Source of the DNA: a virus
Virus record (IMG/VR): IMGVR_UViG_3300025810_000004
Location: 1 to 64,000 of that record
Strand: one strand, 5' to 3'
Length of the DNA: 64,000 bases
The notes beneath the pieces are model-generated. The model saw only the letters and a list, made by a program, of their open reading frames with translations. It was not told where the DNA came from and made no database searches. Below, one piece after another: positions 3 through 62,701 of this stretch. The stretch's first letter is position 1; every line of letters starts with the position of its first letter. The translations under genes were made by a program, and so were the position numbers.

Positions 3-455
3 ATCTTCATGATATCCCACAGGTTCAGAGTCCAGATGGAATCTGTCCACGCCGCAGAGGATAAGGGATTCGTTCTGGACCGATGTTTCCACGAAGACAA
101 AGTGTTTGCCGAGGTCAACCACGAAATGGGAAACATAAGCGACAGAGACTGGGACACGTACTTGCACCTATACGATAGTTTCTGTCGCATAGCGCCACCA
201 CCAGAAGTGATAGTGTACCTGAAAACAGAACCCAGCGTAGCTTTAGGGAGGATAAAATCCCGTGGCAGAAGCTCCGAGCAAGGTATAACCCAAGAGTACA
301 TGGAGAGACTTGATAGGGCCTACGACAGGTGGACTGCTTTTATGGCTCAAAGAACCAAAGTCTTGGTGTTCCCCTGGGACGACTACAGCACACCTGGGGC
401 ACCAGCAGTAGTGGAAACCTTGAAAGACTACACTCTCAAAAGAGAAGTCTTTTAG
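3..455 (+). CDS. Deoxynucleoside kinase (dNK family), 5'-truncated by the window edge
   Basis: Motifs LDRC..ED..F, lid IVYL...P..AL.RIKSRGR..E and Y...L...Y..W; frame is open to the window start. Confidence 0.8.
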   Translation: MFMISHRFRVQMESVHAAEDKGFVLDRCFHEDKVFAEVNHEMGNISDRDWDTYLHLYDSFCRIAPPPEVIVYLKTEPSVALGRIKSRGRSSEQGITQEYMERLDRAYDRWTAFMAQRTKVLVFPWDDYSTPGAPAVVETLKDYTLKREVF

Positions 456-26193: not shown

Positions 26194-28029
26194 ATGGAAG
26201 AACTGATAAGTTGGCTGAAGGACCTCCTTGCTCCAAAACAAGGAGAATTCCTGTATGCCGACTCTTCTCATGACTGGTCCTCCTACGAGGAGGGAACCTT
26301 CCACGGAATAGTGCTGGTTGGTGACAAAGACGACCATTCAGCTATATCAGAAGCCTACAGGGTGCTGAAGCCAGGGGGTCATCTGGCGCTGATATCTCCT
26401 GAAGAAGAACCGACAGGCCACAGTGGAGCTTGCCACGCAGAAGGGGTGGGATTCGAAGTCAGGGACAGCATTCTGGTGTTGTCCCAGCCCGAAGGGTTTG
26501 TGTACTCCGGGAAGACCACCACCAAGGAAAGAGAAGAAGGCTGCTATCTCGTAGAAGAGAAGAGATTCGCTATAAGCGGGGGAGCCAACAAGGTCATAGA
26601 GCGGGGGGAGGATTACGAAACCACCCAGTCCATAGGCATGAACAGGATCCCCAAGCGGCGGAACGTTCACCCCTGTCTTCACCCGGATGCACTGGTGATG
26701 ACGCCCCACGGCTACCGTCCGATCTCGGAGGTCACCGTGGGGGATAAGGTATACTCGGCAGACGGAAGGTTCCATGCCGTCGAGCATGTTTCTAGGCACC
26801 CATACACCAGTACCGACCTCTTTGAGATCAAGGTCACTGGGACCAACTATTCAACTCTCGCTTCCGACAATCACCCCTTCCTGGTGTACCGTCCCACCCG
26901 CAAGCGGAACTCCATAACAGGTGGTCAGGTTCTGTGGCTCCGCGCCGACCAGATGCAAAAAGGGGACTATACAATGACTCCGGATCTGGAGGAGCCCCCT
27001 CCGAACGAACACCTTGACCCAGAATGGTGGTTCGTGTTCGGTTTGTGGGTAGCCGAGGGTGTTGCCCAACGTGCAGGGCATGGTAGCAACGTATACCCGT
27101 CCTTCACCCTCCACGAAAAGGAAACGGACCTGATTGAGCGTATCAGGTCGGTGTTCTCGTCGGCGAACACAAGTGTGCATCCTAAGAAGGGCACGAAAGC
27201 CGTGCAGGTAATATCCTTCGACAAGGTGGCGGGGTCGCGGTTCGTTGAGTTGGCAGGTCGCGGGGCGGCGACGAAATGCCTCCACCCTTCTATTTGGACC
27301 CTTCCAAAGAACATCCGTGCAGCCATCCTTGATGGCTATATGGCCGGGGATGGTGGCAAAGTGCGCACTTATCTACAGGCCAAAAGTGTATCGCCCGATC
27401 TCGCGTCACAGATACGATTGCTTGCCGCGTCCGTGGGGTACAAGGCCAACCTGTTCACCTACGCCCCTGTAGAGGGACAAAGTATCGGTGATCGCTTGTT
27501 CAAATCTGTTCGGCAGACCTATCAGATCCGGCTCTACTCGGAAAACACGCGGAACGTCGCAGCGGGGTTACGCAAGGCTTCCCGACCTTATGAGATCGTC
27601 CACGACGGAGTGCGTTTCGTCTTGTCATACGTCAAGGCTGTGTCCCGTGTTCCTTATGAGGGGGACGTGGTCAACCTCTCCGTGGAAGGATCACCGACCT
27701 TCCAGACGGCTGTGGGTATGAGCCACAACACTGTGAAGCCCAGGGTTGTAATGCAGCACCTCCTGTCTGATGTGGATAAAGATTCAGGCCCCGTGGTGGA
27801 CCCCTTCATGGGTTCGGGAACCACGGGTCTGGCGTGTCTCAGGACGGGACACGACTTCGTAGGGATAGAGAGAGAGGAAGAGTACGCAAAGATAGCCGAT
27901 TCCCGAATCCGGCACTGGACCAACGCCGAAGAGGCTTGGAACCCTGTGGTGTTGGAGTCAGAAGTCGGTCCGGAGGCAGAGAGCACAGAAGTGCAGGAAG
28001 TCTCCTTCGAGGATTTCTTGGGGATATGA
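26194..28029 (+). CDS. Beta-class DNA methyltransferase, SAM-binding (C-terminal) part, intein-containing; lacks DPPY
   Basis: After intein removal: NVHP-TVKP...VVDPFMGSGTTG...FVGIE; N-part has RVLKPGG but no catalytic motif IV. Confidence 0.8.
   Translation: MEELISWLKDLLAPKQGEFLYADSSHDWSSYEEGTFHGIVLVGDKDDHSAISEAYRVLKPGGHLALISPEEEPTGHSGACHAEGVGFEVRDSILVLSQPEGFVYSGKTTTKEREEGCYLVEEKRFAISGGANKVIERGEDYETTQSIGMNRIPKRRNVHPCLHPDALVMTPHGYRPISEVTVGDKVYSADGRFHAVEHVSRHPYTSTDLFEIKVTGTNYSTLASDNHPFLVYRPTRKRNSITGGQVLWLRADQMQKGDYTMTPDLEEPPPNEHLDPEWWFVFGLWVAEGVAQRAGHGSNVYPSFTLHEKETDLIERIRSVFSSANTSVHPKKGTKAVQVISFDKVAGSRFVELAGRGAATKCLHPSIWTLPKNIRAAILDGYMAGDGGKVRTYLQAKSVSPDLASQIRLLAASVGYKANLFTYAPVEGQSIGDRLFKSVRQTYQIRLYSENTRNVAAGLRKASRPYEIVHDGVRFVLSYVKAVSRVPYEGDVVNLSVEGSPTFQTAVGMSHNTVKPRVVMQHLLSDVDKDSGPVVDPFMGSGTTGLACLRTGHDFVGIEREEEYAKIADSRIRHWTNAEEAWNPVVLESEVGPEAESTEVQEVSFEDFLGI
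26674..27729 (+). mobile_element. Intein with LAGLIDADG homing endonuclease (352 aa)
   Basis: Starts CLHPDALV, block B SDNHPF, LAGLIDADG-like GLWVAEG and LDGYMAGDG, ends SHN followed by Thr. Confidence 0.92.
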
Positions 28030-28030
28030 A

Positions 28031-28549
28031 ATGCAAAGGATAAGCATAAGAAGGGGAGACTCCTCCGAAGTCTTGGAGGGCATGGAACCGGAATCGGTAT
28101 GGGCCGTGGTATGCGACCCTCCGTATGACCTCGTTGCCAACAAGAAGGGTGGTAGCGGAACTTCATCCATAGATTTATCCACACCCTACGGACGATCCAG
28201 AATAGGAGTGGGGAACGGTTCCGGTGGCTTCATGGGGAAGCAGTGGGACTCGACCGGGATAGCGTTTTCAGTTGAATTCTGGCAGAAGGTACACAGGGTG
28301 CTGAAGCCAGGAGGGGTGCTGAAGACGTTCGGGGGTAGCCGCACCTTTCACAAGATGGCAAGGGCCATAGAGGAAGCCGGGTTCTCCGATATAAAGCTGG
28401 AGGCTTGGTTGTACTCCTCCGGGTTCCCTAAGTCTCTCAGTATTCCAAAGAAGATAGAGGACAAAGCTCTGTCCAAGGTGTGGGAGGGGTGGGGCACTGC
28501 CTTGAAGCCCTCTTGGGAACCTGTAATAGTGGCCAAGAAGCCACTGTGA
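28031..28549 (+). CDS. Beta-class DNA methyltransferase, catalytic (N-terminal) part
   Basis: GDS...VVCDPPY, FMGKQWD, RVLKPGG, WLYSSGFPKS, GWGTALKP.WEP; no FxGxG. Confidence 0.85.
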   Translation: MQRISIRRGDSSEVLEGMEPESVWAVVCDPPYDLVANKKGGSGTSSIDLSTPYGRSRIGVGNGSGGFMGKQWDSTGIAFSVEFWQKVHRVLKPGGVLKTFGGSRTFHKMARAIEEAGFSDIKLEAWLYSSGFPKSLSIPKKIEDKALSKVWEGWGTALKPSWEPVIVAKKPL

Positions 28550-29043
28550 GAAGCATAAAGCTGACAGAATCCGAGGACAGGGTTCCGGTGGGCTCAGAAC
28601 CAGAGTCCGTGTCCGTCATGGTCGAATTCGTACCAGAGGACTCCGACAACTGGGGAACACTCGAACCACTCCGGGGAACAACCTGGGAAGACGGGGTGAG
28701 TGAAGTAGACGCTGACTCGTTCAGTCACGCCCTGCACGGCAGACTGTCTCCCCTTCTGAAGAAGCTGGGTAGGAACCCCGTGTATAGTGCCCGTAGGGTT
28801 TCGGAACAAGAGGGGGTGTGCGACTTCAAGGGCAACTGCATAAAGTTCGACAAGAACCTGTGCAGGCCGGGAGGGGAGAAGGGAAACGGGTGGAGGAAGA
28901 AGTACGGCCCGTTCGACTGCTACCAGCCCCCTCTCCAAGGGGCCAGCATAGACGTCACCGAAACCTTTCTAAAAGTGGCTTTGGCATGGAAAGAGGGTAT
29001 TTTTGTCATAGTGGTGAAGGGTGAAGGATTCAACCTGAGGTAA
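28546..29043 (+). CDS. Hypothetical Cys-containing protein
   Basis: GTGA overlap with the upstream gene; four Cys in the C-half. Confidence 0.55.
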   Translation: MRSIKLTESEDRVPVGSEPESVSVMVEFVPEDSDNWGTLEPLRGTTWEDGVSEVDADSFSHALHGRLSPLLKKLGRNPVYSARRVSEQEGVCDFKGNCIKFDKNLCRPGGEKGNGWRKKYGPFDCYQPPLQGASIDVTETFLKVALAWKEGIFVIVVKGEGFNLR

Positions 29044-29045
29044 GT

Positions 29046-29612
29046 ATGAGACAAGTGGCTTGCAATAACTGTGGACTGGTTACGGAATTCCTGACCAGCG
29101 TTTGGAACGCCCAAGGGTCCACCTGTAAGGGCTGCGGTCACGTCATACAGCCACTGCTTGGGAACAAGGTCGCCCCAGCCTCGTGTGGCAACCAGATAGA
29201 GCTATCCCACATAAAGGGAAAGGGGATGGGGGTGCTCGCCACCAAGGACATAAAGGATGGGGAATTGGTCGAGCGGTGCCCTGTTTTCGTCCTGAATAGC
29301 ACGGACGAAACTCGAAATCACATAAAGGGTCTGACCCTATCTCCATACGAGGACGGAAGCAGAGAGATCAATATGTCTTTCATGCTTCTGCCATGGGTTG
29401 TGAATGGGAACAGGTGCATAGCTCTGGGATACGCGATGATATACAACCACGCCCCGGTCGAGAGGTCCAACGTGCTCTATTATCCCCACGTAGACCCGGA
29501 CTCCAGCAGGAGATTCCTGGACTTCTACGCCAAGAGGGACATAAAAGCCGGGGAGGAGCTTACACAGACCTACGCCCCCAACAACAGCCTGTGGTTCACA
29601 GCCAAGGGATAG
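29046..29612 (+). CDS. SET-domain protein-lysine methyltransferase with N-terminal Zn ribbon
   Basis: KGMGVLATKDI..GE, YNH, A.RDI.AGEEL..TY; CNNC and CKGC pairs. Confidence 0.85.
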   Translation: MRQVACNNCGLVTEFLTSVWNAQGSTCKGCGHVIQPLLGNKVAPASCGNQIELSHIKGKGMGVLATKDIKDGELVERCPVFVLNSTDETRNHIKGLTLSPYEDGSREINMSFMLLPWVVNGNRCIALGYAMIYNHAPVERSNVLYYPHVDPDSSRRFLDFYAKRDIKAGEELTQTYAPNNSLWFTAKG

Positions 29613-29615
29613 ACG

Positions 29616-30224
29616 ATGCTTGAGGTTATCACGGGCTGCATGTACAGCGGCAAGAGCGAAGAGTTGATCCGGCGTCTTCGGAGATGTCAGATCGCGGACC
29701 AGTTCACCCTTGTGATGAAGCCCGCGATTGACGACCGCTACTCTGCTGACTCCGTTGCGACCCACGTTGGGGGCTCGCTGAAAGCGGTAGCCGTCAAAGA
29801 CGTGCAGGATGTCAAACGTCTGCTCTGTGCACAGCCCTTCTTTATGACCGGGCAGGTCGTTGGTCTGGACGAGGTTCAGTTCCTTGACGACGAGATCGTG
29901 GACGTGCTGGAGGCCGAAGCAAACCGAGGTCGCCGAGTCATCGTAGCGGGCCTCGATCTCGACTCGGACGGCAATCCGTTCGGCCCGATGGCAAGACTTC
30001 TCGCGGTGGCCGACAAAGTGACCAAGTTGACTGCTGTGTGCGTGGCTCGCCTCTTCATCACCCGTGGCCTCCCGTCCGCGAGAGGTCAGGGTGATGTTTG
30101 CGGTAAGCCCGCCACCCGGTCGTACCGGTTGCCCAATCAAGACACAGGAGAGCAGGTGCAGGTCGGCTCCGACGGTGTGTACGAAGCTCGGTGCCGCGTG
30201 TGCTGGGCAAGGATGCAAGGATGA
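29616..30224 (+). CDS. tdk: Thymidine kinase
   Basis: G.MYSGKSEELIRR, IDDRY, DEVQF, AGLD.D...PFG, Y.ARCR.C. Confidence 0.93.
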   Translation: MLEVITGCMYSGKSEELIRRLRRCQIADQFTLVMKPAIDDRYSADSVATHVGGSLKAVAVKDVQDVKRLLCAQPFFMTGQVVGLDEVQFLDDEIVDVLEAEANRGRRVIVAGLDLDSDGNPFGPMARLLAVADKVTKLTAVCVARLFITRGLPSARGQGDVCGKPATRSYRLPNQDTGEQVQVGSDGVYEARCRVCWARMQG

Positions 30225-30607
30225 AGGTAGTCTATCTGCTTAGGAAGCCTCTTTCTGAAGGAACTATAACCGCAAACGTGTTGAAGCATGGGACTGGTGC
30301 CATCAACATTGAAGTTTGTAGGACCCCAACTTCGGACAGCCTCAACGGGGGAGCCTACGCTGAGAACCCCACTCACCGCGCTGGTGAGGACATGTGGACC
30401 AATGGTCGCAAAGAGGACACCAAATGCTTCCGACGTGGAAAGGAATACGCTGGGGAGTACCAGCAGCCCACAGGTCGTTGGCCGTCCAATGTCATCCTTC
30501 AACACCTCGACGGGTGCGAGGATTCGTCCTGCGATACGGGGTGTCCCGTAGAAGCCATGGGGAGTAACTCTCGGTTCTACAGACACATAGGGGGCTCCAA
30601 TGAGTAG
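30221..30607 (+). CDS. Middle segment of the same beta-class DNA methyltransferase family
   Basis: RKPLSEGTITANVLKHGTGAINI..CR, GRWPSNV and SRFY, which normally lie between the DPPY and FxGxG parts. Confidence 0.7.
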   Translation: MKVVYLLRKPLSEGTITANVLKHGTGAINIEVCRTPTSDSLNGGAYAENPTHRAGEDMWTNGRKEDTKCFRRGKEYAGEYQQPTGRWPSNVILQHLDGCEDSSCDTGCPVEAMGSNSRFYRHIGGSNE

Positions 30608-32553: not shown

Positions 32554-32858
32554 CCATGACCTATGAAAATATCCGCAACAAGTTTCAGAATTCAGAAACC
32601 GACGTCGTGATTGTCGCACCCGATGCCAAGGTGCAAGAAGTCGCACTTGGTCTTTCCACCCTGTTCGAACCGGGAAGCTATTCTGCCTCCCGCAGGGAGT
32701 GGACGAACCACCGCAACGCCAAGGTGAAGGTGCGGGGTATCTGCAACCCCGAAGACCTCAGCCCGGATACAGAGGTCATCTTCTTCCCTGTGACCCGGCC
32801 CTACACCGACACGGAGCGGAGGTTCATCAAGTCCTGGAGGATCACTCCCACTCGATAG
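32547..32858 (+). CDS. Hypothetical protein
   Basis: Last gene of the run; its 3' end overlaps the convergent guaA. Confidence 0.5.
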   Translation: MLTMTYENIRNKFQNSETDVVIVAPDAKVQEVALGLSTLFEPGSYSASRREWTNHRNAKVKVRGICNPEDLSPDTEVIFFPVTRPYTDTERRFIKSWRITPTR

Positions 32859-34356
32859 TGCCGGGGGGCTTGGTGCTTATATCGTAGGTCACCCTGTTTA
32901 TGCCCCGCACTTCGTTGATGATGCGGGTAGAAATCCGGGTGAGCACCGACCAAGGTATCTCCGCCACGTCAGCCGTCATGCCATCAGTTGAGTGGACCGC
33001 ACGTATGACGCACGTCTTCTCATACGTCCGCTGGTCCCCCATCACCCCCACGCTCTTCACTGGAAGCAAGACTGCGAGGCTCTGCCACAGACGTTCGTAC
33101 CAACCGGACTGTCTGATTTCGTAGTCCAATATAGCTTCGGCTTCCTGCAGAACGGCGACAGCCTCAGCCGTCACCTCACCGGGGATGCGGATAGACAGTC
33201 CGGGACCTGGGAAGGGATGCCTGTTCACACGCTTGTCGCTCAGGCCCAGTTCCTTGCCCAGCAGTCTGACCTCGTCCTTGAAAAGCTCCCTGAGGGGCTC
33301 TATGAGTTCGAATTCAAGGTCTTCCGGCAAACCCCCCACATTGTGGTGGGACTTGATGGTAGCGGAGGGACCACGGAAGGAAACCGACTCGATAACGTCC
33401 GGATAGAGAGTTCCCTGTGCAAGGAACTTCGCGCCCTGAACAGACCTGGCATAATCGCTGAAGACGTCCACGAACGTCTTCCCCACCGCTTTGCGCTTCT
33501 GCTCGGGGTCGGTGAGACCCGACAAAGCAGAATAGAACTTGTCCTTGGCGTCGACCACAGTGAGGTTGAGTTCAGAGAATTCTCGCTCGACCTCCTCCCT
33601 CTCGCCCTTCCTCAGGAGCCCGTTGTCGACAAACACACAGTGCAACCTGTCGCCTATGACCCCGTGGAGGAGAGAAGCGACAACAGAAGAGTCAACCCCG
33701 CCAGACAGACCGCATATGACCTTGTCTTCAGGGGAAACCTGAGACTCTATCTGGGCATGGGCTATGTCTATGTATGATCCCACGCTCCAGTCTTGTGCTA
33801 TGTCGCACTGGTCGACCCACTCTCTTATCAAGGTCGCACCATCTTGGGAGTGGGACACTTCCGGGTGAAATTGGAACCCGGTGAAACCAAGCTCTTCACT
33901 GCGTATCCCGGCGAACTGGCAGTCCACGGTGCTGTAGACGGTTTCCCAGTCTCCCATAGGGAGAGACATAACCTTGTCCCCGTGGGACATCCAGACTTTG
34001 GACCTGACACGGGGGTTCCCACCGGGTTCGCTGATGTAGGCGGGTCCATACTCTCTGGATTTGGTGGATACTACCTCACCACCCAGGTGGTGGACAACCA
34101 CTTGCATCCCATAACATATACCAAGGACCGGAACCCCCATTTCCAACCATTCGCGGTCAAATGGGGGAGCGCCCTCCTCGTACACGGAGGAGGGCCCACC
34201 GGATAACACCACCCCCCTGACGTTCCAGGGGTCGGTTATGCCGAAGGGGTGGTCGGTGCAGGGTCGGATAGAGCAGAAAACACCCAATTCCCGAATCCTA
34301 CGGGCTATGAGTTGGGTGTACTGACTGCCGAAATCTACTATTACGATCCGCTTCAT
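32842..34356 (-). CDS. guaA: GMP synthase (glutamine-hydrolysing)
   Basis: DFGSQYTQLIARR, GICYGMQ, QFHPEV, LSGGVDSSV, IKSHHNVGG, KPPGTIEWE. Confidence 0.97.
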   Translation of the reverse strand: MKRIVIVDFGSQYTQLIARRIRELGVFCSIRPCTDHPFGITDPWNVRGVVLSGGPSSVYEEGAPPFDREWLEMGVPVLGICYGMQVVVHHLGGEVVSTKSREYGPAYISEPGGNPRVRSKVWMSHGDKVMSLPMGDWETVYSTVDCQFAGIRSEELGFTGFQFHPEVSHSQDGATLIREWVDQCDIAQDWSVGSYIDIAHAQIESQVSPEDKVICGLSGGVDSSVVASLLHGVIGDRLHCVFVDNGLLRKGEREEVEREFSELNLTVVDAKDKFYSALSGLTDPEQKRKAVGKTFVDVFSDYARSVQGAKFLAQGTLYPDVIESVSFRGPSATIKSHHNVGGLPEDLEFELIEPLRELFKDEVRLLGKELGLSDKRVNRHPFPGPGLSIRIPGEVTAEAVAVLQEAEAILDYEIRQSGWYERLWQSLAVLLPVKSVGVMGDQRTYEKTCVIRAVHSTDGMTADVAEIPWSVLTRISTRIINEVRGINRVTYDISTKPPGTIEWE

Positions 34357-38199: not shown

Positions 38200-38349
38200 A
38201 TGGCCCGACGAGAAGAAATCCGACTCACGGTTGATCCTGATATGCTCGTCTGGCTGAGGGCTGAAGCCAAACGCCGTCGGGTCTCTATGTCCCACATCGT
38301 GCGGGACCTTATCCTTCAGGCCATGCCCGAAGAGGCCAAGACCCAGTGA
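38200..38349 (+). CDS. Ribbon-helix-helix protein (49 aa), absent from the ORF track
   Basis: MARREEIRLTVDPDMLVWLRAEAKRRRVSMSHIVRDLI; AGGAG RBS; GTGA overlap with tnpB. Confidence 0.75.
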   Translation: MARREEIRLTVDPDMLVWLRAEAKRRRVSMSHIVRDLILQAMPEEAKTQ

Positions 38350-39638
38350 GGCTGGCCTACCGAGTGGAGATCAGGCCGACGCCTCGCCAGAGGCAGGCCC
38401 TCCTGCAACATGCAGGCAACGCTCGGTGGGCTTACAACTGGGGCCTCTCCCGCCACAAAGAAACCTACGACCAGTGGGTTGAAATCGGCAAGCCAAAGAA
38501 GTGGAAAGGCTGGCTCAACGCCGTCTCCCTTCACCGGGAGTTGAATCTTCTGAAGAAGGCTGCCCCAGAGGACGGCGGGGTCCCCTGGATGTACGAGGCC
38601 AGTAAAGCCGCTCCACAAGAGAGTCTGAGAGACCTTGACCGTGCGTTCAAGAACTTCCTCTCAGGGAGGGCCAAGTACCCCCGGTTCAAGTCCCGGAGCC
38701 GTGGGGTCGGCGGGTTCCGCCTGACCGGCACCATCAAGGTCGATCACCGGACGGTCCAACTCCCGAGGATCGGAAGGCTCCGGTTTCAGCCCGGCGAACA
38801 GGGCTACCTGCCCTGGGGTAAGCACACCCAGGTCTCCGTCTCTGAGAAGGCTGGCAGGTGGTTCGTCTCGATCGTTGGACCAGAGGTCTCGGAAGCAGAG
38901 CCGAACGGGAAAGATGCTGTAGGTCTGGATCTCGGCGTGACCCGGTTGGCTACGCTGTCGGACGGGACGGTCATCGAGAACCCTCGCGCTTTGAAGTCAG
39001 CCCAGCGGAAGATCAAGCGACTCCAGCAGGAGGTATCCAGAAAGAAGAAAGGCTCAGCGAACCGAGGCAAGGCCAGGGCGAAGCTCGCCCGTGCCCACGT
39101 CCGGGTCGCTAATGTAAGACGTGACACGCTTCACAAGGCCACGACCATGCTTGCCAAGAGCCACGGCAAGGTGATCATCGAGGACTTGAAGGTGCGGAAC
39201 ATGACTCGCTCGGGAGGCTCGCAGAAGCGGGGCCTCAACCGGGCCCTGCTCGATGCCGCCTTCGGGGAGTTCTGTCGCCTGTTGAAGTACAAGGGGAAGC
39301 TGTACGGCTGTGAAGTCGTGGCTGTCCCGCCGCAGTACACCTCGCAGCGATGTTCCGTTTGCGGTCACGTCGAGAAGGACAACCGGGTTTCTCAGTCGAG
39401 GTTCCTGTGTCTGTCCTGCGGCTTTGCGGTCAATGCTGATCTCAACGCCGCGATCAACATCTTGGAGGCCGCCAGTTCTACGGACTCCCTAAACGCCTGT
39501 GGAGAGGGCGTAAGACCTACTTCGACTTGTTCGGAGAGGCAGACCTCGTTGAAGCAGGAACCCGGCACCAACCTTCGGGTTGGGTCAGTCCGGGGGCCGT
39601 CCTCGCAAGAGGCGGCAGCCATGCCTGGGTTTACCTAA
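38346..39638 (+). CDS. tnpB: RNA-guided endonuclease TnpB
   Basis: N-terminal HTH (AGNARWAYNWGL), RuvC GLDLG / IEDL / ADLNAA all intact, Zn finger CSVC-CLSC. Confidence 0.95.
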   Translation: MRLAYRVEIRPTPRQRQALLQHAGNARWAYNWGLSRHKETYDQWVEIGKPKKWKGWLNAVSLHRELNLLKKAAPEDGGVPWMYEASKAAPQESLRDLDRAFKNFLSGRAKYPRFKSRSRGVGGFRLTGTIKVDHRTVQLPRIGRLRFQPGEQGYLPWGKHTQVSVSEKAGRWFVSIVGPEVSEAEPNGKDAVGLDLGVTRLATLSDGTVIENPRALKSAQRKIKRLQQEVSRKKKGSANRGKARAKLARAHVRVANVRRDTLHKATTMLAKSHGKVIIEDLKVRNMTRSGGSQKRGLNRALLDAAFGEFCRLLKYKGKLYGCEVVAVPPQYTSQRCSVCGHVEKDNRVSQSRFLCLSCGFAVNADLNAAINILEAASSTDSLNACGEGVRPTSTCSERQTSLKQEPGTNLRVGSVRGPSSQEAAAMPGFT

Positions 39639-43334: not shown

Positions 43335-45332
43335 ATGAGGGGTGTAGCGGTGGCTGATTCTGCTAATGGTCTTTCTGTCTTTCCCAATGAGTTGTCTCAG
43401 TTCGTAATCACCCGGTCTTACTCCAGGTGGAACCCCGATTTGGGCCGGAGGGAGACTTATCCGGAGACGGTAGAAAGATACTGCAGTTTCATTTCCAAGC
43501 ACCGTGACATACCAGCCGAAATACTGGAAGAGATACGGTCTGGAATCCGGACCATGAACACACTCCCCTCCATGCGAGCGTTGTGGTCTGCGGGTACAGC
43601 GGCAGAGACCGACAACACCATGATCTACAACTGCTCTTTCCTCCCGCTCGACAATCTCAGAGCATTCTCCGAGATGCTCTACATCCTGATGATGGGGACT
43701 GGTGTGGGGTACTCCGTCGAAAGAACGTTCGTGGACAACCTTCCTAAGGTTTATCCCTCCAACGGACACACCCACCACATCACGGTGGAGGACAGCACGG
43801 CAGGATGGGCGGATTCCCTGTTTGAGGGATTGACCTACATGTGGAAGGGAAGCAAGGTCACATTCGACTATTCTCTCGTCCGTCCGGAAGGCTCAAGGTG
43901 CAAGACCAAGGGTGGCAGAGCTTCCGGACCCAAGCCGCTGAAGGACCTCCACGATTTCTGTCAGAACCTTCTGGACAACGCGAGGGGTCGCAAGCTCAGG
44001 TCCATAGAGGTCAGTGACATAGCTTGCATGATCGGGGAAATAGTCAAGGCAGGGGGAGTCCGGGGTGCTGCCCTTATTTGCTTCTCCGACCCTGACGACG
44101 AGGAAATGCGTCACGCCAAGGACTGGAGCCGGGGCGACTTTCCGAGTTACAGATACGTGGCGAACTTCAGCGGATTCTGGTCTGAGCGTCCAGACCGGAA
44201 GACCTTCGACAAGGAGTGGACTGCTCTCAGGAACTCCGGGTCTGGTGAGCGCGGCTTCTACATGTTCCCCCACCACAAGCGTTCTGAGCGCCGGGGTGAC
44301 TGCCGCTCCAACCCGTGTGGGGAAATCCTGCTCCGTTTCAAGAGGGCCGAGTGCCCCTGGACCGGAAGAGGCGGCGGGGGTCAGTTTTGCAACCTCTCTG
44401 CAGCTGTCATGCGTTCTTGGGACACCAAGGAGACTTTCGCCGCCAAGATCCGGGTCGCCACCTGGATCGGTGCCATACAGTCCAGCTTCACCGAGTTCCC
44501 GTATCTTCGCCCTGCCTGGAAGCAGCACTGTGAAGAGGACAGGCTTCTCGGTGTGGATATAACGGGCCACTGTGACAACCCCGCCCTTTCTGGTGACAAC
44601 GAGGCCATGGCCTACTTCAACACGGTCGCCAGGGATACTGCGTACGTCGCTGCGAAGCATCTGGACATAAACGTCCCAGCCATGATCACCTGTGGGAAGC
44701 CCAGCGGTAACTCCTCTCAGGCAGTGGACTGCGCAAGCGGTTTCCATACCCGTTGGAGCAAGTTCTACATCCGCAGAGTTCGCATCAACAACAGGGACCC
44801 CCTTTTCAGTCTTATCAAGGATGCCGGGGTCCCGGTCTTCAAGGACAACTCGTACAAGAACCTCCCCGACGAGGAGTGCCCTAGGTGGGTTGCGGAGTTC
44901 CCGGTCAAATCGCCTGAAGGCTGCATGACCAGAGACGACGAGACTGCCATCGAGCAGCTCAACCGCTACCTCAACATCATGGAGACTTGGCTTTCGGTCA
45001 AGGGACACAACCAGTCTGCCACCGTCTACGTTCGGGACCACGAGTGGGATGGAGTCGGTGACTGGCTTTACGAGAACTTCAACAAGGTCACCGGACTCTC
45101 CTTCCTCCCCTACGACGGCGGGAAGTACGAACTGGGACCCTACGAGACCATAACCGAAGAAGAGTACAACCGCCTCAGCGAGAGCTTCCCCCACATCGAC
45201 TATTCCCTCCTTCCCTCCTACGAGGTTGAGGACATGGGTACGGGTGCACAGGAGCTTGCTTGCATGGGCGGTTCTTGTGAATTGGGTGATTGGCTCGACG
45301 CCAAGAGCGAAGAAGTCTCCGCTTCTTTGTAG
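43335..45332 (+). CDS. nrdJ: Class II (B12-dependent) ribonucleotide reductase
   Basis: YNC, NPCGEI, CNL, KPSG and C-terminal ACMGGSCE; RTPR-type size; no small subunit gene nearby. Confidence 0.9.
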   Translation: MRGVAVADSANGLSVFPNELSQFVITRSYSRWNPDLGRRETYPETVERYCSFISKHRDIPAEILEEIRSGIRTMNTLPSMRALWSAGTAAETDNTMIYNCSFLPLDNLRAFSEMLYILMMGTGVGYSVERTFVDNLPKVYPSNGHTHHITVEDSTAGWADSLFEGLTYMWKGSKVTFDYSLVRPEGSRCKTKGGRASGPKPLKDLHDFCQNLLDNARGRKLRSIEVSDIACMIGEIVKAGGVRGAALICFSDPDDEEMRHAKDWSRGDFPSYRYVANFSGFWSERPDRKTFDKEWTALRNSGSGERGFYMFPHHKRSERRGDCRSNPCGEILLRFKRAECPWTGRGGGGQFCNLSAAVMRSWDTKETFAAKIRVATWIGAIQSSFTEFPYLRPAWKQHCEEDRLLGVDITGHCDNPALSGDNEAMAYFNTVARDTAYVAAKHLDINVPAMITCGKPSGNSSQAVDCASGFHTRWSKFYIRRVRINNRDPLFSLIKDAGVPVFKDNSYKNLPDEECPRWVAEFPVKSPEGCMTRDDETAIEQLNRYLNIMETWLSVKGHNQSATVYVRDHEWDGVGDWLYENFNKVTGLSFLPYDGGKYELGPYETITEEEYNRLSESFPHIDYSLLPSYEVEDMGTGAQELACMGGSCELGDWLDAKSEEVSASL

Positions 45333-60646: not shown

Positions 60647-60879
60647 TCCCTCCTGTTGTTCTGTCGGTATTTTCTGATTTTCCCCACGTCCAGACTGTGG
60701 TTTGGGACGGAGAAGTTGAGGTCAACGGGTCCAAAGTGGGGAACCCAGAAATCTTTGAACCATTGTGGGACTTCTTTGTCGAAACTCCGCACGTTCGTTA
60801 TGACCGTGCGGAGGTAAGCGCCGAATCCCCGACTGGTATACTCCCCAACCCCCTAACAACCTTAGGATCAGACTCATGA
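60643..60879 (+). CDS. Small hypothetical protein
   Basis: GTGA and ATGA overlaps on the two sides. Confidence 0.5.
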   Translation: MIPPVVLSVFSDFPHVQTVVWDGEVEVNGSKVGNPEIFEPLWDFFVETPHVRYDRAEVSAESPTGILPNPLTTLGSDS

Positions 60880-61955
60880 GTGGTAGAAAGAGAGAAGTGG
60901 TTGCTGTCATTGGCGCACAATTCGGCAGTGAGGGCAAGGGCAAGGTCGTTGACTGCCTTGTCAAGAACATGGACGGTGGAAACGGGTTCGACGTTGCCGT
61001 TCGGACTGGTGGTCCCAACGCTGGGCACACCTTCTACACCAAGGACGGCAAGGCGTGGGTCATGCAGTCCATCCCGTGTGCTTGGGAAGACCCCACCACC
61101 AAGCTCGTCATCGGTGCGGGTGCTCTGTTCGACCCGGAGCAGATCAACGCAGAGATCGACCGCATCGAGGCCGAATACGGTGAGGGCTACATCACCAACC
61201 GCCTCTACGTTGATCCCAACGCTGCCGTCATCGCTCAGGACCACCGCGACTTCGAGGGCGGCACCAAGGGTGACGCCCACGCCAAGATCGGCTCCACGGG
61301 CAAGGGGGTTGGTATCGCTCGCGCTGTCCATATCGCTCGTGGGCTCGGCTGGCACGGCGAACTCTCCACTGGCACCGTCGCTTCCCGTGGGCTGAAGGGT
61401 CGCTGGATCGAGGCCGACACCGTTGAGATCATCCAGCAGGGCGACCGCATCCTGCTGGAGGGCACCCAGGGTGCTGGTCTCTCGCTTCTCCACGGTCCTT
61501 GGCCGAAGACCACCAGCGCCGACATTGGTGTCGCCTCCATGATGTCCGAGGCCGGTGTCCCCCCCGGTGACCGCCCCGTGGTCGTCTGGTACGCCACCCG
61601 CACTATGCCGATCCGCGTCGCTGGTCCCTCCGGTCCTCTCCCCGGCGAAATGACCTGGGAAGAGGTGTCCAAGTCCGCAGGCCGCGTGGTCATCGAGCGC
61701 ACCACCGTGACCAAGAAGGTCCGCCGCATCGGTCGCTTCGATATGAAGGAGTTCAAGCGCTCTGTGGCCCGCAATGGTGCGGGCAAGGTGCTTTTGACCT
61801 TCTGCGACTACCTCGACGGCGGCAAGCCCGTCAATGAGGACGGATCCCTCGCTCCCGAGACTCAGGCTCTCGTGGACGAGATCAATGGGGTGTCCGGGAT
61901 CACTGTCGCCGGTATCAGCATTGGGCCGAAGGCCAGCGAAACCATCCTCTTTTAG
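60876..61955 (+). CDS. purZ0: PurA-family synthetase with PurZ0 signature (putative GTP-dependent 2-aminodeoxyadenylosuccinate synthetase)
   Basis: QFGSEGKGK (Ser where PurA has Asp), GGPNAGHT, EGTQG, RTMPIRVAG.SG, ERTTVTKKVRR, TFCDY; short 359-aa form. Confidence 0.8.
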   Translation: MSGRKREVVAVIGAQFGSEGKGKVVDCLVKNMDGGNGFDVAVRTGGPNAGHTFYTKDGKAWVMQSIPCAWEDPTTKLVIGAGALFDPEQINAEIDRIEAEYGEGYITNRLYVDPNAAVIAQDHRDFEGGTKGDAHAKIGSTGKGVGIARAVHIARGLGWHGELSTGTVASRGLKGRWIEADTVEIIQQGDRILLEGTQGAGLSLLHGPWPKTTSADIGVASMMSEAGVPPGDRPVVVWYATRTMPIRVAGPSGPLPGEMTWEEVSKSAGRVVIERTTVTKKVRRIGRFDMKEFKRSVARNGAGKVLLTFCDYLDGGKPVNEDGSLAPETQALVDEINGVSGITVAGISIGPKASETILF

Positions 61956-61972
61956 AACGGAGAACAGACGAA

Positions 61973-62701
61973 ATGTCTGATGAAAACACCCGCCAGTTCC
62001 TTGCAGGGGTCAAAGATCGAATTGACGAAGCCTTTGCGGTCATGACCGAGAAGGCAGAACTTCGTGGTACTTCCAATCTTGACGACCAGGGAGTCCACGG
62101 TGTCTTGGGTCGCATGATCCACGACAAGGGTGTTCGCATCAGACGCTGGCTGGAGACTGGTGAAGAGGACTTCGAAGCTGTCCGCGACGACGTTCTCGAC
62201 ACCATCAACTACGCCGCCATCGCGTTGTTCATGGGTGACACCAATCGAGGGGCTGGTCCCGGTCCCTCGATTGGCAATCCCCTCGTCACCCACGGCGAGT
62301 TCGAAAGAGCCCACGAAACCGACGCTGGCTGGGACGTGTACACCAGCGAAGACGTCGTGGTTCCTCCCCACACCCACTCCAACGTTCCCAGCGGCACCCG
62401 CATGGTCCCGCCCCCCGGAACGTGGCTGTTCCTCGTGGGGCGCAGCAGCACGTGGTCGAAGCACAAGCTGATGGTCATTCCCGGTGTCATCGACGCCGGG
62501 TACTCCGGTGAGCTGTTCGCCATGGTCCACAACCCCACCGACCAGCCCGTCACCCTCCCCAAGGGGTCGCGGGTCGTGCAGGCCATCCCCATCCCCATCC
62601 CGGCTCTCAAGGTCGTGGCTGGCTCGATGGAGGACGTTCATGCTGCCGCTGAGCGGTACGGAGACCGTGGCTCCAAGGGGTTTGGTTCCTCAGGAACCTG
62701 A
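61973..62701 (+). CDS. Fusion of a DUF1599/Nmad1-like helical domain and a trimeric dUTPase
   Basis: N-part K...G...G...R..DK..R...D...D.INYA; C-part dUTPase motifs DAGWD, GRSS, GVIDAGY.GE, Q, RG..GFGSSG. Confidence 0.8.
   Translation: MSDENTRQFLAGVKDRIDEAFAVMTEKAELRGTSNLDDQGVHGVLGRMIHDKGVRIRRWLETGEEDFEAVRDDVLDTINYAAIALFMGDTNRGAGPGPSIGNPLVTHGEFERAHETDAGWDVYTSEDVVVPPHTHSNVPSGTRMVPPPGTWLFLVGRSSTWSKHKLMVIPGVIDAGYSGELFAMVHNPTDQPVTLPKGSRVVQAIPIPIPALKVVAGSMEDVHAAAERYGDRGSKGFGSSGT

Follow-up and report, generated by a model that had tools for sequence, protein, structure and literature searches.

Does a very large bacteriophage make 2-aminoadenine (Z) and place it in its DNA where adenine would stand? 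The question is raised by a gene at positions 60876-61955 of a 64,000-nucleotide stretch (the window), the first 64 kb of IMG/VR virus record IMGVR_UViG_3300025810_000004, which is a linear viral contig of 158,946 bp with a CheckV completeness of 36%. A reading of the letters alone, without database searches (the sequence-only reading), had proposed a PurZ0-type enzyme in a very large phage, in the context of a pathway to the triphosphate of Z (dZTP), and every computational test that was run points that way. The open reading frame (ORF) very probably encodes a PurZ0-type enzyme that uses deoxyguanosine monophosphate (dGMP). A working dZTP pathway with substantial replacement of adenine by Z is, to judge from the genes, somewhat probable; complete replacement is possible but rather doubtful.

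The gene at the centre of the question is the following.

60876-61955, plus strand: purZ0-like gene, 359 amino acids; PurA-family, Ser-type, with GTP motifs; candidate succino-amino-deoxyadenylate synthase

The ORF has exactly the limits first assigned to it, and an AGGA Shine-Dalgarno-like motif lies 9 nt upstream of its ATG. All of the motifs quoted in the sequence-only reading are present, namely QFGSEGKGK (with Ser18 and Glu19), PIRV (245-248), ERTTVTKKVRR (274-284) and TFCD (308-311, with Asp311). The protein matches the adenylosuccinate-synthetase fold of Pfam PF00709 (E = 4.3e-46), belongs to the PurZ family phrog_1211 in PHROGs (E = 8e-67), and finds its best NCBIfam model in PurZ NF038379 (E = 5e-63, 213 bits), similarities well outside what chance would give. 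Among solved structures, the closest relative is the PurZ0 of Gordonia phage Archimedes (7VF6, PMC12884076), and the alignments to 7vf6 and 5k7x are full length.

7vf6, PurZ0 of Gordonia phage Archimedes: E = 2e-46 (best solved relative)
5k7x and 2d7u, Pyrococcus PurA: E = 1.5e-38
6fm1, phiVC8 PurZ: E = 2e-30
7odx, S-2L PurZ: E = 1e-24
various entries, bacterial PurA: E = 2e-25 and weaker

Residue states were read from an alignment with fetched reference genes: PurA of Salmonella; ATP-type PurZ of phiVC8, Acinetobacter Bhz9 and Alteromonas ZP6; and PurZ0 of Archimedes, Ghobes and Sergei. The P-loop, the loop that contacts the base of the nucleoside triphosphate (NTP) and the region around Arg303 (R303) of PurA compare as follows.

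PurA (Salmonella): P-loop GDEGKG; NTP-base loop TKLD; TRVG; R303 region GATTGRRRR
ATP-type PurZ: P-loop GSTGKG; NTP-base loop NFCN or NFAN; R303 region TTVTK(K/L/R)xRR
PurZ0: P-loop GSEAKG; NTP-base loop xxAD or xxLD; R303 region TTVT(N/Q)K(I/V)RR
purZ0-like protein: P-loop GSEGKG; NTP-base loop TFCD; R303 region TTVTKKVRR

Ser18 stands where PurA has its catalytic Asp13; this serine is shared with all six PurZ and PurZ0 references and with 259 of 264 relatives, whereas the PurA outgroups keep Asp. Glu19 and Asp311 are in the guanine-type states of PurZ0 and PurA, where the ATP-type PurZ references carry Thr and Asn. The motif contrasts drawn earlier between PurA (GDEGKG), PurZ (GSTGKG with NFxN) and PurZ0 (Glu and Asp kept) hold on the aligned reference sequences. 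Behind the conserved RV loop there is a 2-residue insertion relative to Pyrococcus horikoshii PurA and no gap relative to 7vf6. Selectivity for guanine and for the deoxy sugar has been linked to the serine, to a displaced R303 equivalent and to the insertion after the RV loop, the latter two being associated with exclusion of the ribose 2'-OH (PMC8342488); all three features occur in the purZ0-like protein. The original PurZ0 study, which PMC12884076 cites and a preprint (bioRxiv 10.1101/2025.10.22.683976) paraphrases, gives GTP as the phosphate donor of PurZ0, and GTP is most likely also the donor here, as the Glu and Asp states suggest.

The gene that follows, starting 17 bp downstream, is a fusion of two domains.

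61973-62701, plus strand: fusion gene, 242 amino acids; N-terminal helical domain and C-terminal DutZ-type dUTPase
61973-62296, plus strand: N-terminal domain of the fusion, about 108 amino acids, helical
62303-62698, plus strand: C-terminal domain of the fusion, trimeric dUTPase, PF00692 over residues 111-241

The C-terminal domain carries the dUTPase motifs GVIDAGYSGE and RGSKGFGSSG and is the sole dUTPase in the 159 kb of the contig. Its affinities were sought among 50,697 GenBank phage records. The 45 best phage matches, at 41-49% identity, all come from actinophage groups that also gave PurZ-like matches (Microbacterium, Arthrobacter, Gordonia, Streptomyces, Micrococcus and Curtobacterium) and include Wayne gp53 and Archimedes gp55; the canonical dUTPases of Staphylococcus, Campylobacter and Lactococcus phages, hundreds of them, rank below the DutZ-type matches. 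A local hidden Markov model (HMM) of the domain matches Ghobes gp55, Archimedes gp55, Sergei gp49, Hiyaa gp69 and Rasovi gp61. By these affinities the domain is assigned as DutZ-type rather than as a canonical dUTPase. DutZ enzymes convert dATP, dGTP and dUTP to monophosphates, an activity measured for Wayne gp53; dutZ occurs in 98 of 98 published PurZ0 genomes, where it replaces DatZ and MazZ, and 13 of the 98 lack DmtZ (PMC12884076).

The DutZ assignment bears on the genes that are missing. Searches of the 159 kb cover about 36% of the estimated genome, and absences there are weak. Within that span there is no match to HD-family DatZ (PF01966), to MazG-type MazZ (PF03819) or to DUF5664 (PF18909), and the look through the contig for datZ, mazZ/DUF550, purB and gmk that the sequence-only reading had suggested returned none of them. 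That reading had treated the lack of DatZ as a caveat. The lack itself stands, but it is not a weakness, given the DutZ-type domain next door: DutZ performs dATP to dAMP and dGTP to dGMP in PurZ0 systems, and a missing DatZ is therefore expected.

The same arrangement recurs in related viruses. Of 78 IMG/VR loci carrying the nearest relatives (36-45% identity), 39 have a family-A polymerase of about 590 amino acids at -1 or -2, and 39 have a downstream dUTPase of about 144 amino acids, usually at +1; NDT-like or Ghobes/Sergei-type accessory genes are found at +2, and DatZ and MazZ probes matched in none of the 78. The two nearest GTDB matches, on short contigs of Bacteroidota metagenome-assembled genomes (MAGs), likewise have a dUTPase at +1. 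A 35-kb contig from another sample (L094) preserves the order clamp, PurZ, fusion, IMP dehydrogenase (IMPDH) and baseplate. Between the two contigs, at dS of about 0.35-0.46, dN/dS is 0.045 for purZ0, 0.031 for the fusion gene and 0.065 for guaB. Both genes of the module are under strong purifying selection, and their GC content, local and at third codon positions (GC3), is unremarkable.

The N-terminal domain of the fusion gave no Pfam, atlas or word-based homologue match. A DUF1599/Nmad1 label was discarded (the Pfam DUF1599 model gives nothing at E <= 10), as were MazZ, DUF5664 and NDT, with no HMM similarity to phiVC8 or ZP6 MazZ, to the Acinetobacter DUF5664-DUF550 protein or to the Ghobes and Sergei accessory proteins. 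A model built from a 10-row alignment is a three-helix bundle with a pLDDT of 67, the single-sequence fold being poor; Foldseek returns nothing significant for it, and the weak matches are mostly all-alpha NTP pyrophosphatases of the MazG/HisE/DCTPP1 type. Twelve residues are invariant over about 100 amino acids (K27, N35, G40, G43, R47, D51, K52, R55, D72, D76, N79 and Y80). A local profile picks up the domain nowhere but next to PurZ-like and dUTPase genes. It occurs as a standalone protein (L111:10564-10962 and L150:7050-7475, the latter locus having PurZ, dUTPase and N-domain as three consecutive genes), inside a 214-residue ORF at +2 (L015, 7559-8203) and fused to an NDT-like domain (L132, 9078-9956).

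Further genes of nucleotide supply lie in or at the edge of the window.

63412-64464, plus strand: guaB (IMP dehydrogenase core without CBS insert), 350 amino acids, PF00478; runs past 64,000
32842-34356, minus strand: guaA (glutamine-hydrolysing GMP synthase), 504 amino acids, GATase and GMP_synt_C domains; NF000848 at 700 bits, above cut-off
43335-45332, plus strand: class II (B12-dependent) ribonucleotide reductase, 665 amino acids, RNR_Alpha and RNR-II insertion domains
9-455, plus strand: deoxynucleoside kinase (also placed at 9-380), 5'-truncated by the contig end; PF01712, E = 5.8e-27, profile positions 60-181

The accessory set named in the sequence-only reading (guaB, guaA, NrdJ, the deoxynucleoside kinase and the adjacent pyrophosphatase fusion) is real throughout, and guaB is a true IMPDH. 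The 350-residue protein scores 417 bits with TIGR01302 (IMP_dehydrog) against 226 bits for GMP reductase, so that the reductase identity, which would have offered a route from G to A, is rejected and a GMP-to-IMP-to-AMP reading is ruled out. The gene is read in the direction of purZ0, three genes further on, and L094 keeps this order. The ribonucleotide reductase most resembles the triphosphate-reducing RTPR type (TIGR02505, E = 1e-65; its 222 bits are under the cut-off of 340).

This purine-gene neighbourhood, with IMPDH close by and guaA in the window, would also suit an ordinary adenylosuccinate synthetase, which would join IMP and aspartate at the expense of GTP, as an auxiliary gene balancing AMP against the GMP made through guaB and guaA, next to a plain dUTPase. 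Two profile scores tell against a PurZ0 assignment: the 213 bits with NF038379 fall short of its curated cut-off of 300, and the archaeal-type PurA model, a point in favour of such an enzyme, comes nearly level at 205 bits, itself under its cut-off. The Glu and Asp retained from PurA are compatible with it too, and in two Nanoarchaeota MAGs (G002 and G003; loci L097 and L098) the only PurA-family gene is Ser-type (GSEGKG). Against it stand the exchange of Asp13 for Ser throughout nearly all relatives, the PurZ states of the R303 region and of the loop after RV, a neighbour whose dUTPase domain is nearest DutZ and not the canonical phage enzymes, and the fact that the PolA-PurZ-dUTPase-NDT synteny of the relatives is the published PurZ0 module. 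We regard an ordinary PurA function as most improbable. Among other archaea, an Archaeoglobaceae MAG has an Asp-type PurA with a Gly-type paralogue, and another unclassified archaeal MAG an Asp-type PurA with a Ser-type paralogue.

The serine itself calls for some caution. A pattern scan over one genome per prokaryotic species gave at least 600 Ser-type P-loop matches, of which 561 are confirmed relatives, some on complete chromosomes. There are thus at least 561 cellular homologues with Ser or Gly at the Asp13 site, in operons apparently unrelated to Z-genomes, and they count against any direct step from residue to genome chemistry. The sequence-only reading had taken the Asp-to-Ser change as distinguishing PurZ and PurZ0; the change is present, and the PurZ and PurZ0 references share it, but it is not diagnostic alone. 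As the Ser-type P-loop is also cellular, Ser18 by itself cannot be read as a sign of a Z-genome. The cellular operons (examples are L022:3958-8715, L090:5410-7646 and L025:3791-7056, among L016-L093) are conserved and combine the PurA-like gene with a deoxynucleoside kinase, a dCTP-deaminase-like gene and an RNase-H/kinase protein. In other cellular forms an N-terminal P-loop kinase resembling the kinase domain of the PADLOC 'dCTPase' is fused to the PurA-like domain, and DUF7002 or CapP-like M78 peptidases are the neighbours. Metagenomic proteins of 500-570 amino acids (P0265, P0279, P0299, P0305 and others) similarly place a P-loop kinase-like domain of about 160-220 amino acids (GxxxSGKST) before a Ser-type PurA-like domain and are, by this architecture, counterparts of the cellular fusions. 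The cellular family, apparently undescribed, looks like deoxynucleotide chemistry with a defence-island flavour.

A phage protein could have a role like that of these cousins, attacking nucleotide pools or countering defence by draining dGMP or by making a non-DNA signalling or toxic nucleotide, and leaving the genome unmodified. The number of cellular homologues and the defence-island-typical partners in their operons speak for such a role, as does a quick IQ-TREE in which one broad group takes in both the phage clades and the kinase-fused forms. The purZ0-like gene, on the other hand, has none of those partners and a phage-type dUTPase instead; the careful tree described below sets the proteins of the cellular operons apart, at its base; and PADLOC gives no match for the ORF, a result by which a defence-system label was also dropped. 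Such a role is improbable.

The phylogeny was meant in the sequence-only reading as a check with PurA, PurZ and PurZ0 references. A FastTree of 351 sequences, with the root placed on archaeal and bacterial PurA, has the proteins of the cellular operons and the kinase fusions at its base, followed by ATP-type PurZ; the purZ0-like protein sits in a metagenome-only clade of 164 sequences (0.97), whose sister is actinophage PurZ0 (0.94). The quick IQ-TREE (posterior mean site frequency model, PMSF; 110 sequences) keeps the clades on a little-resolved backbone, with the query clade and PurZ0 as sisters at a support of 54. An approximately unbiased (AU) test does not reject a tree in which the query clade is forced together with ATP-type PurZ (p = 0.93), which weakens the placement; this constrained tree beats the quick one by 62.7 log-likelihood units, so the quick search was sub-optimal. 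A careful tree (LG+G4; UFBoot/SH-aLRT) supports the query clade at 97/93 and its union with actinophage PurZ0 at 92/83; next to join, on a weak attachment (22/36), is ATP-type PurZ as their sister, and the cellular proteins are again basal. The query falls outside the 100%-supported clade of actinophage PurZ0 (Archimedes, Ghobes and Wayne-like). The sequences thus place the enzyme in a distinct, well-supported clade of uncultured phages, outside both named clades, whose affinity with PurZ0 is favoured, not secure. Given the sub-optimal quick tree and the non-rejecting AU test, phylogeny as proof of PurZ0 membership was dropped, and the case rests on motifs and gene context.

The metagenome-only clade comprises 280 IMG/VR contigs that are closer to the purZ0-like enzyme than any characterised PurZ0. 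Identity to GenBank phage PurZ-like proteins is 35-38%, and about 32% to phiVC8 PurZ. Two other large contigs, L188 (IMGVR_UViG_3300021592_000001, 188 kb) and L157 (IMGVR_UViG_3300019458_000027, 105 kb), carry Ser-type PurZ-like genes that are 35-36% identical; both have a distant family-A polymerase, with no dUTPase found anywhere on the contig, and may use a different helper set.

What kind of phage carries the module? Two contigs, 159 kb at 36% completeness and 35 kb at 8%, give a genome size estimate of about 440 kb. The contig encodes Baseplate-J and portal proteins, and the nearest GenBank relatives of the portal belong to the uncultured 485-kb phage LR745208.1 (66.6% identity), Tunturiibacter phage Tunturi_5 (309 kb) and Bacillus phage G (497 kb). 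The source is a very large ("jumbo") tailed phage of about 440 kb, and the label given by the sequence-only reading is borne out by the completeness of the contig and by portal relatives from phages of 309-497 kb. The remark that known Z-genome phages are small is also correct for the PurZ-like matches listed, in which every phage record is at most 89 kb and the largest is 89 kb. A literature search turned up no mention of jumbo phages with PurZ or diaminopurine; Listeria jumbo phage LPJP1, considered as an earlier jumbo Z-phage, was rejected as a presumed dU-phage that merely cites a Z paper.

Put together, the genes suggest the following scheme. The PurZ0-type enzyme would condense dGMP and aspartate in a GTP-driven reaction to N6-succino-2-amino-2'-deoxyadenylate (dSMP). 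The DutZ-type domain would turn dATP into dAMP, removing the competitor, and dGTP into dGMP, feeding PurZ0. Host PurB, guanylate kinase and nucleoside diphosphate kinase would carry dSMP on to dZTP, and the phage replisome would place Z opposite T, so that virion DNA would contain it. Phage IMPDH, GMP synthase and the triphosphate-type class II reductase may be coupled to this route by raising the flux from IMP through GMP and GTP to dGTP, an RTPR-type reductase yielding directly the dGTP that is a DutZ substrate. The whole chain would run IMP, XMP, GMP, GTP, dGTP, dGMP, dSMP, at a cost of one dGMP and one GTP per Z. In its fullest form, the proposal is a phage of about 440 kb that is fully Z, has a clamp-loader-dependent replisome instead of DpoZ and its own IMPDH-GMP synthase-RTPR-DutZ-PurZ0 chain, and uses the helical domain as a new component of Z metabolism; we put this forward tentatively, as a possibility that falls short of even chances.

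The module might instead be active with Z substitution that is partial or conditional, or with dZTP that mainly disturbs the host nucleotide pool, in a phage that acquired it recently and has no Z-selective polymerase. For their replication, most proven Z-genome phages have a dedicated family-A polymerase that is selective for Z. In the 159 kb there is no DpoZ-type PolA (PF00476), PolB or Pol III alpha, and no DmtZ/NDT (PF05014), PurB or guanylate kinase, whereas half of the related small-phage loci have a family-A polymerase near purZ. The huge-phage relatives LR745208.1 (485 kb) and Tunturi_5 (309 kb) lack a PurA-family gene, and no dUTPase was found in LR745208.1; from the missing PurA-family genes, the module is an addition to a lineage whose DNA is otherwise ordinary, and not ancestral. 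The window encodes a split N6_N4-family DNA methyltransferase (26194-30607), whose fragment at 26194-28029 (plus strand) contains an intein with a LAGLIDADG domain; if adenine-specific, the enzyme would argue for residual adenine. Several A-containing palindromes are still fully avoided: AGGCCT, ATGCAT and CTCGAG have 0 copies each against 28-48 expected. All of this weighs against substantial replacement, and a Z-cluster moved into E. coli gave partial substitution (PMC8342488). On the other side, S-2L reaches full substitution with a non-selective polymerase by dATP removal alone (PMC8342488), and DutZ gives such removal; the unremarkable base composition and strong purifying selection speak against a very recent or idle acquisition; and a polymerase could lie in the other two thirds of the genome. 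Partial or conditional substitution is accordingly unlikely, though a more serious contender than either alternative enzyme role, and we continue to prefer a working pathway with substantial replacement.

Restriction-site palindromes do not help to decide. In Z-DNA, 6-bp palindromes that contain A are expected to be less avoided than those of G and C only. On the contig, G/C-only hexamer palindromes number 35 against 682 expected, and A/T-containing ones reach 0.6-0.8 of expectation; the proven Z-phages show the same contrast (Sergei 0.16 versus 0.73-0.85; phiVC8 0.18 versus 0.75-1.0), but so does the PurZ-less Tunturi_5 (0.14 versus 0.9-1.3). The test was discarded as non-discriminating. Over the whole contig, CCCGGG, CCGCGG, GGCGCC, AGGCCT, ATGCAT, CTCGAG, GCTAGC and TCTAGA are absent, and CTAG occurs in 17 copies, 0.09 of expectation. 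In the ORFs neighbouring the methyltransferase, a simple regular expression found no DPPY or SPPY motif.

Two further genes may be recorded in passing. A TnpB/IS605 OrfB-type gene with HTH_OrfB_IS605, OrfB_IS605 and Cas12f1-like TNB domains lies at 38346-39638 (plus strand), and a GIY-YIG homing-endonuclease-like gene with two GIY-YIG stretches lies among the baseplate genes at contig positions 71511-72704 (minus strand; L001:7514-8704).

The phage would be the largest candidate Z-genome so far and, if fully Z, about five times bigger than any known. Should Z stand throughout a genome of about 440 kb that is copied by a cellular-style clamp and clamp-loader replisome, then neither great genome size nor elaborate machinery for phage transcription and replication would stand in the way of replacing A by Z genome-wide. 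PurZ0 and DutZ would prove to be a transferable pair of genes, open to uptake by a lineage that is canonical in other respects, and GMP synthesis by phage enzymes would count among the costs of having Z-DNA. There is a practical side as well: many restriction enzymes fail on Z-DNA, which can also skew library preparation and nanopore basecalling, so that huge phages of this kind may be sampled too rarely.

The pathway as such is already known, PurZ0 since 2023 and DutZ/DmtZ since 2026. What is new here is the PurZ0-like clade, the fusion architecture, the huge-phage genome without a nearby DpoZ, and the link to phage-encoded GMP synthesis. The closest known system is the actinophage PurZ0 of Archimedes, with which the protein shares the PurA fold, Ser at the Asp13 site with an adjacent Glu, Asp in the guanine-recognition loop, the TTVTxKxRR motif and the PIRVAG loop; a DutZ-type dUTPase lies directly downstream in both, with no DatZ and no MazZ. 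The differences are genome size (about 440 kb here, 40-83 kb there), a DutZ domain fused to a small helical domain and not accompanied by an NDT-like DmtZ, the lack of NDT and family-A polymerase in the 159 kb, and linkage to guaB, guaA and an RTPR-like reductase.

From ATP-type PurZ (phiVC8, 6FM1; S-2L, 7ODX; PMC8342488), the same reaction would be expected, dGMP + Asp to dSMP. The two have in common the Ser at the Asp13 site, a TTVTKKVRR identical to that of phiVC8, and the downstream logic in which dATP is removed and dGMP supplied. They differ in GSEGKG with TFCD here against GSTGKG with NFxN there, and the HD-type DatZ and MazG-type MazZ of those clusters are not found in the 159 kb. The short archaeal PurA of Pyrococcus horikoshii (5K7X/2D7U) is similar in length class (about 340-360 amino acids) and in GTP-type motifs, but keeps the catalytic Asp (GDEGKG), reads GTVTGRRRR, lacks an insertion behind TRVG and acts on IMP. 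The cellular Ser/Gly-type proteins, at 34-40% identity, have a Ser-Glu P-loop and an Asp in the guanine loop in common with the purZ0-like protein; they are set apart by being chromosomal, often fused to N-terminal P-loop kinases, associated with other partners and basal in the trees.

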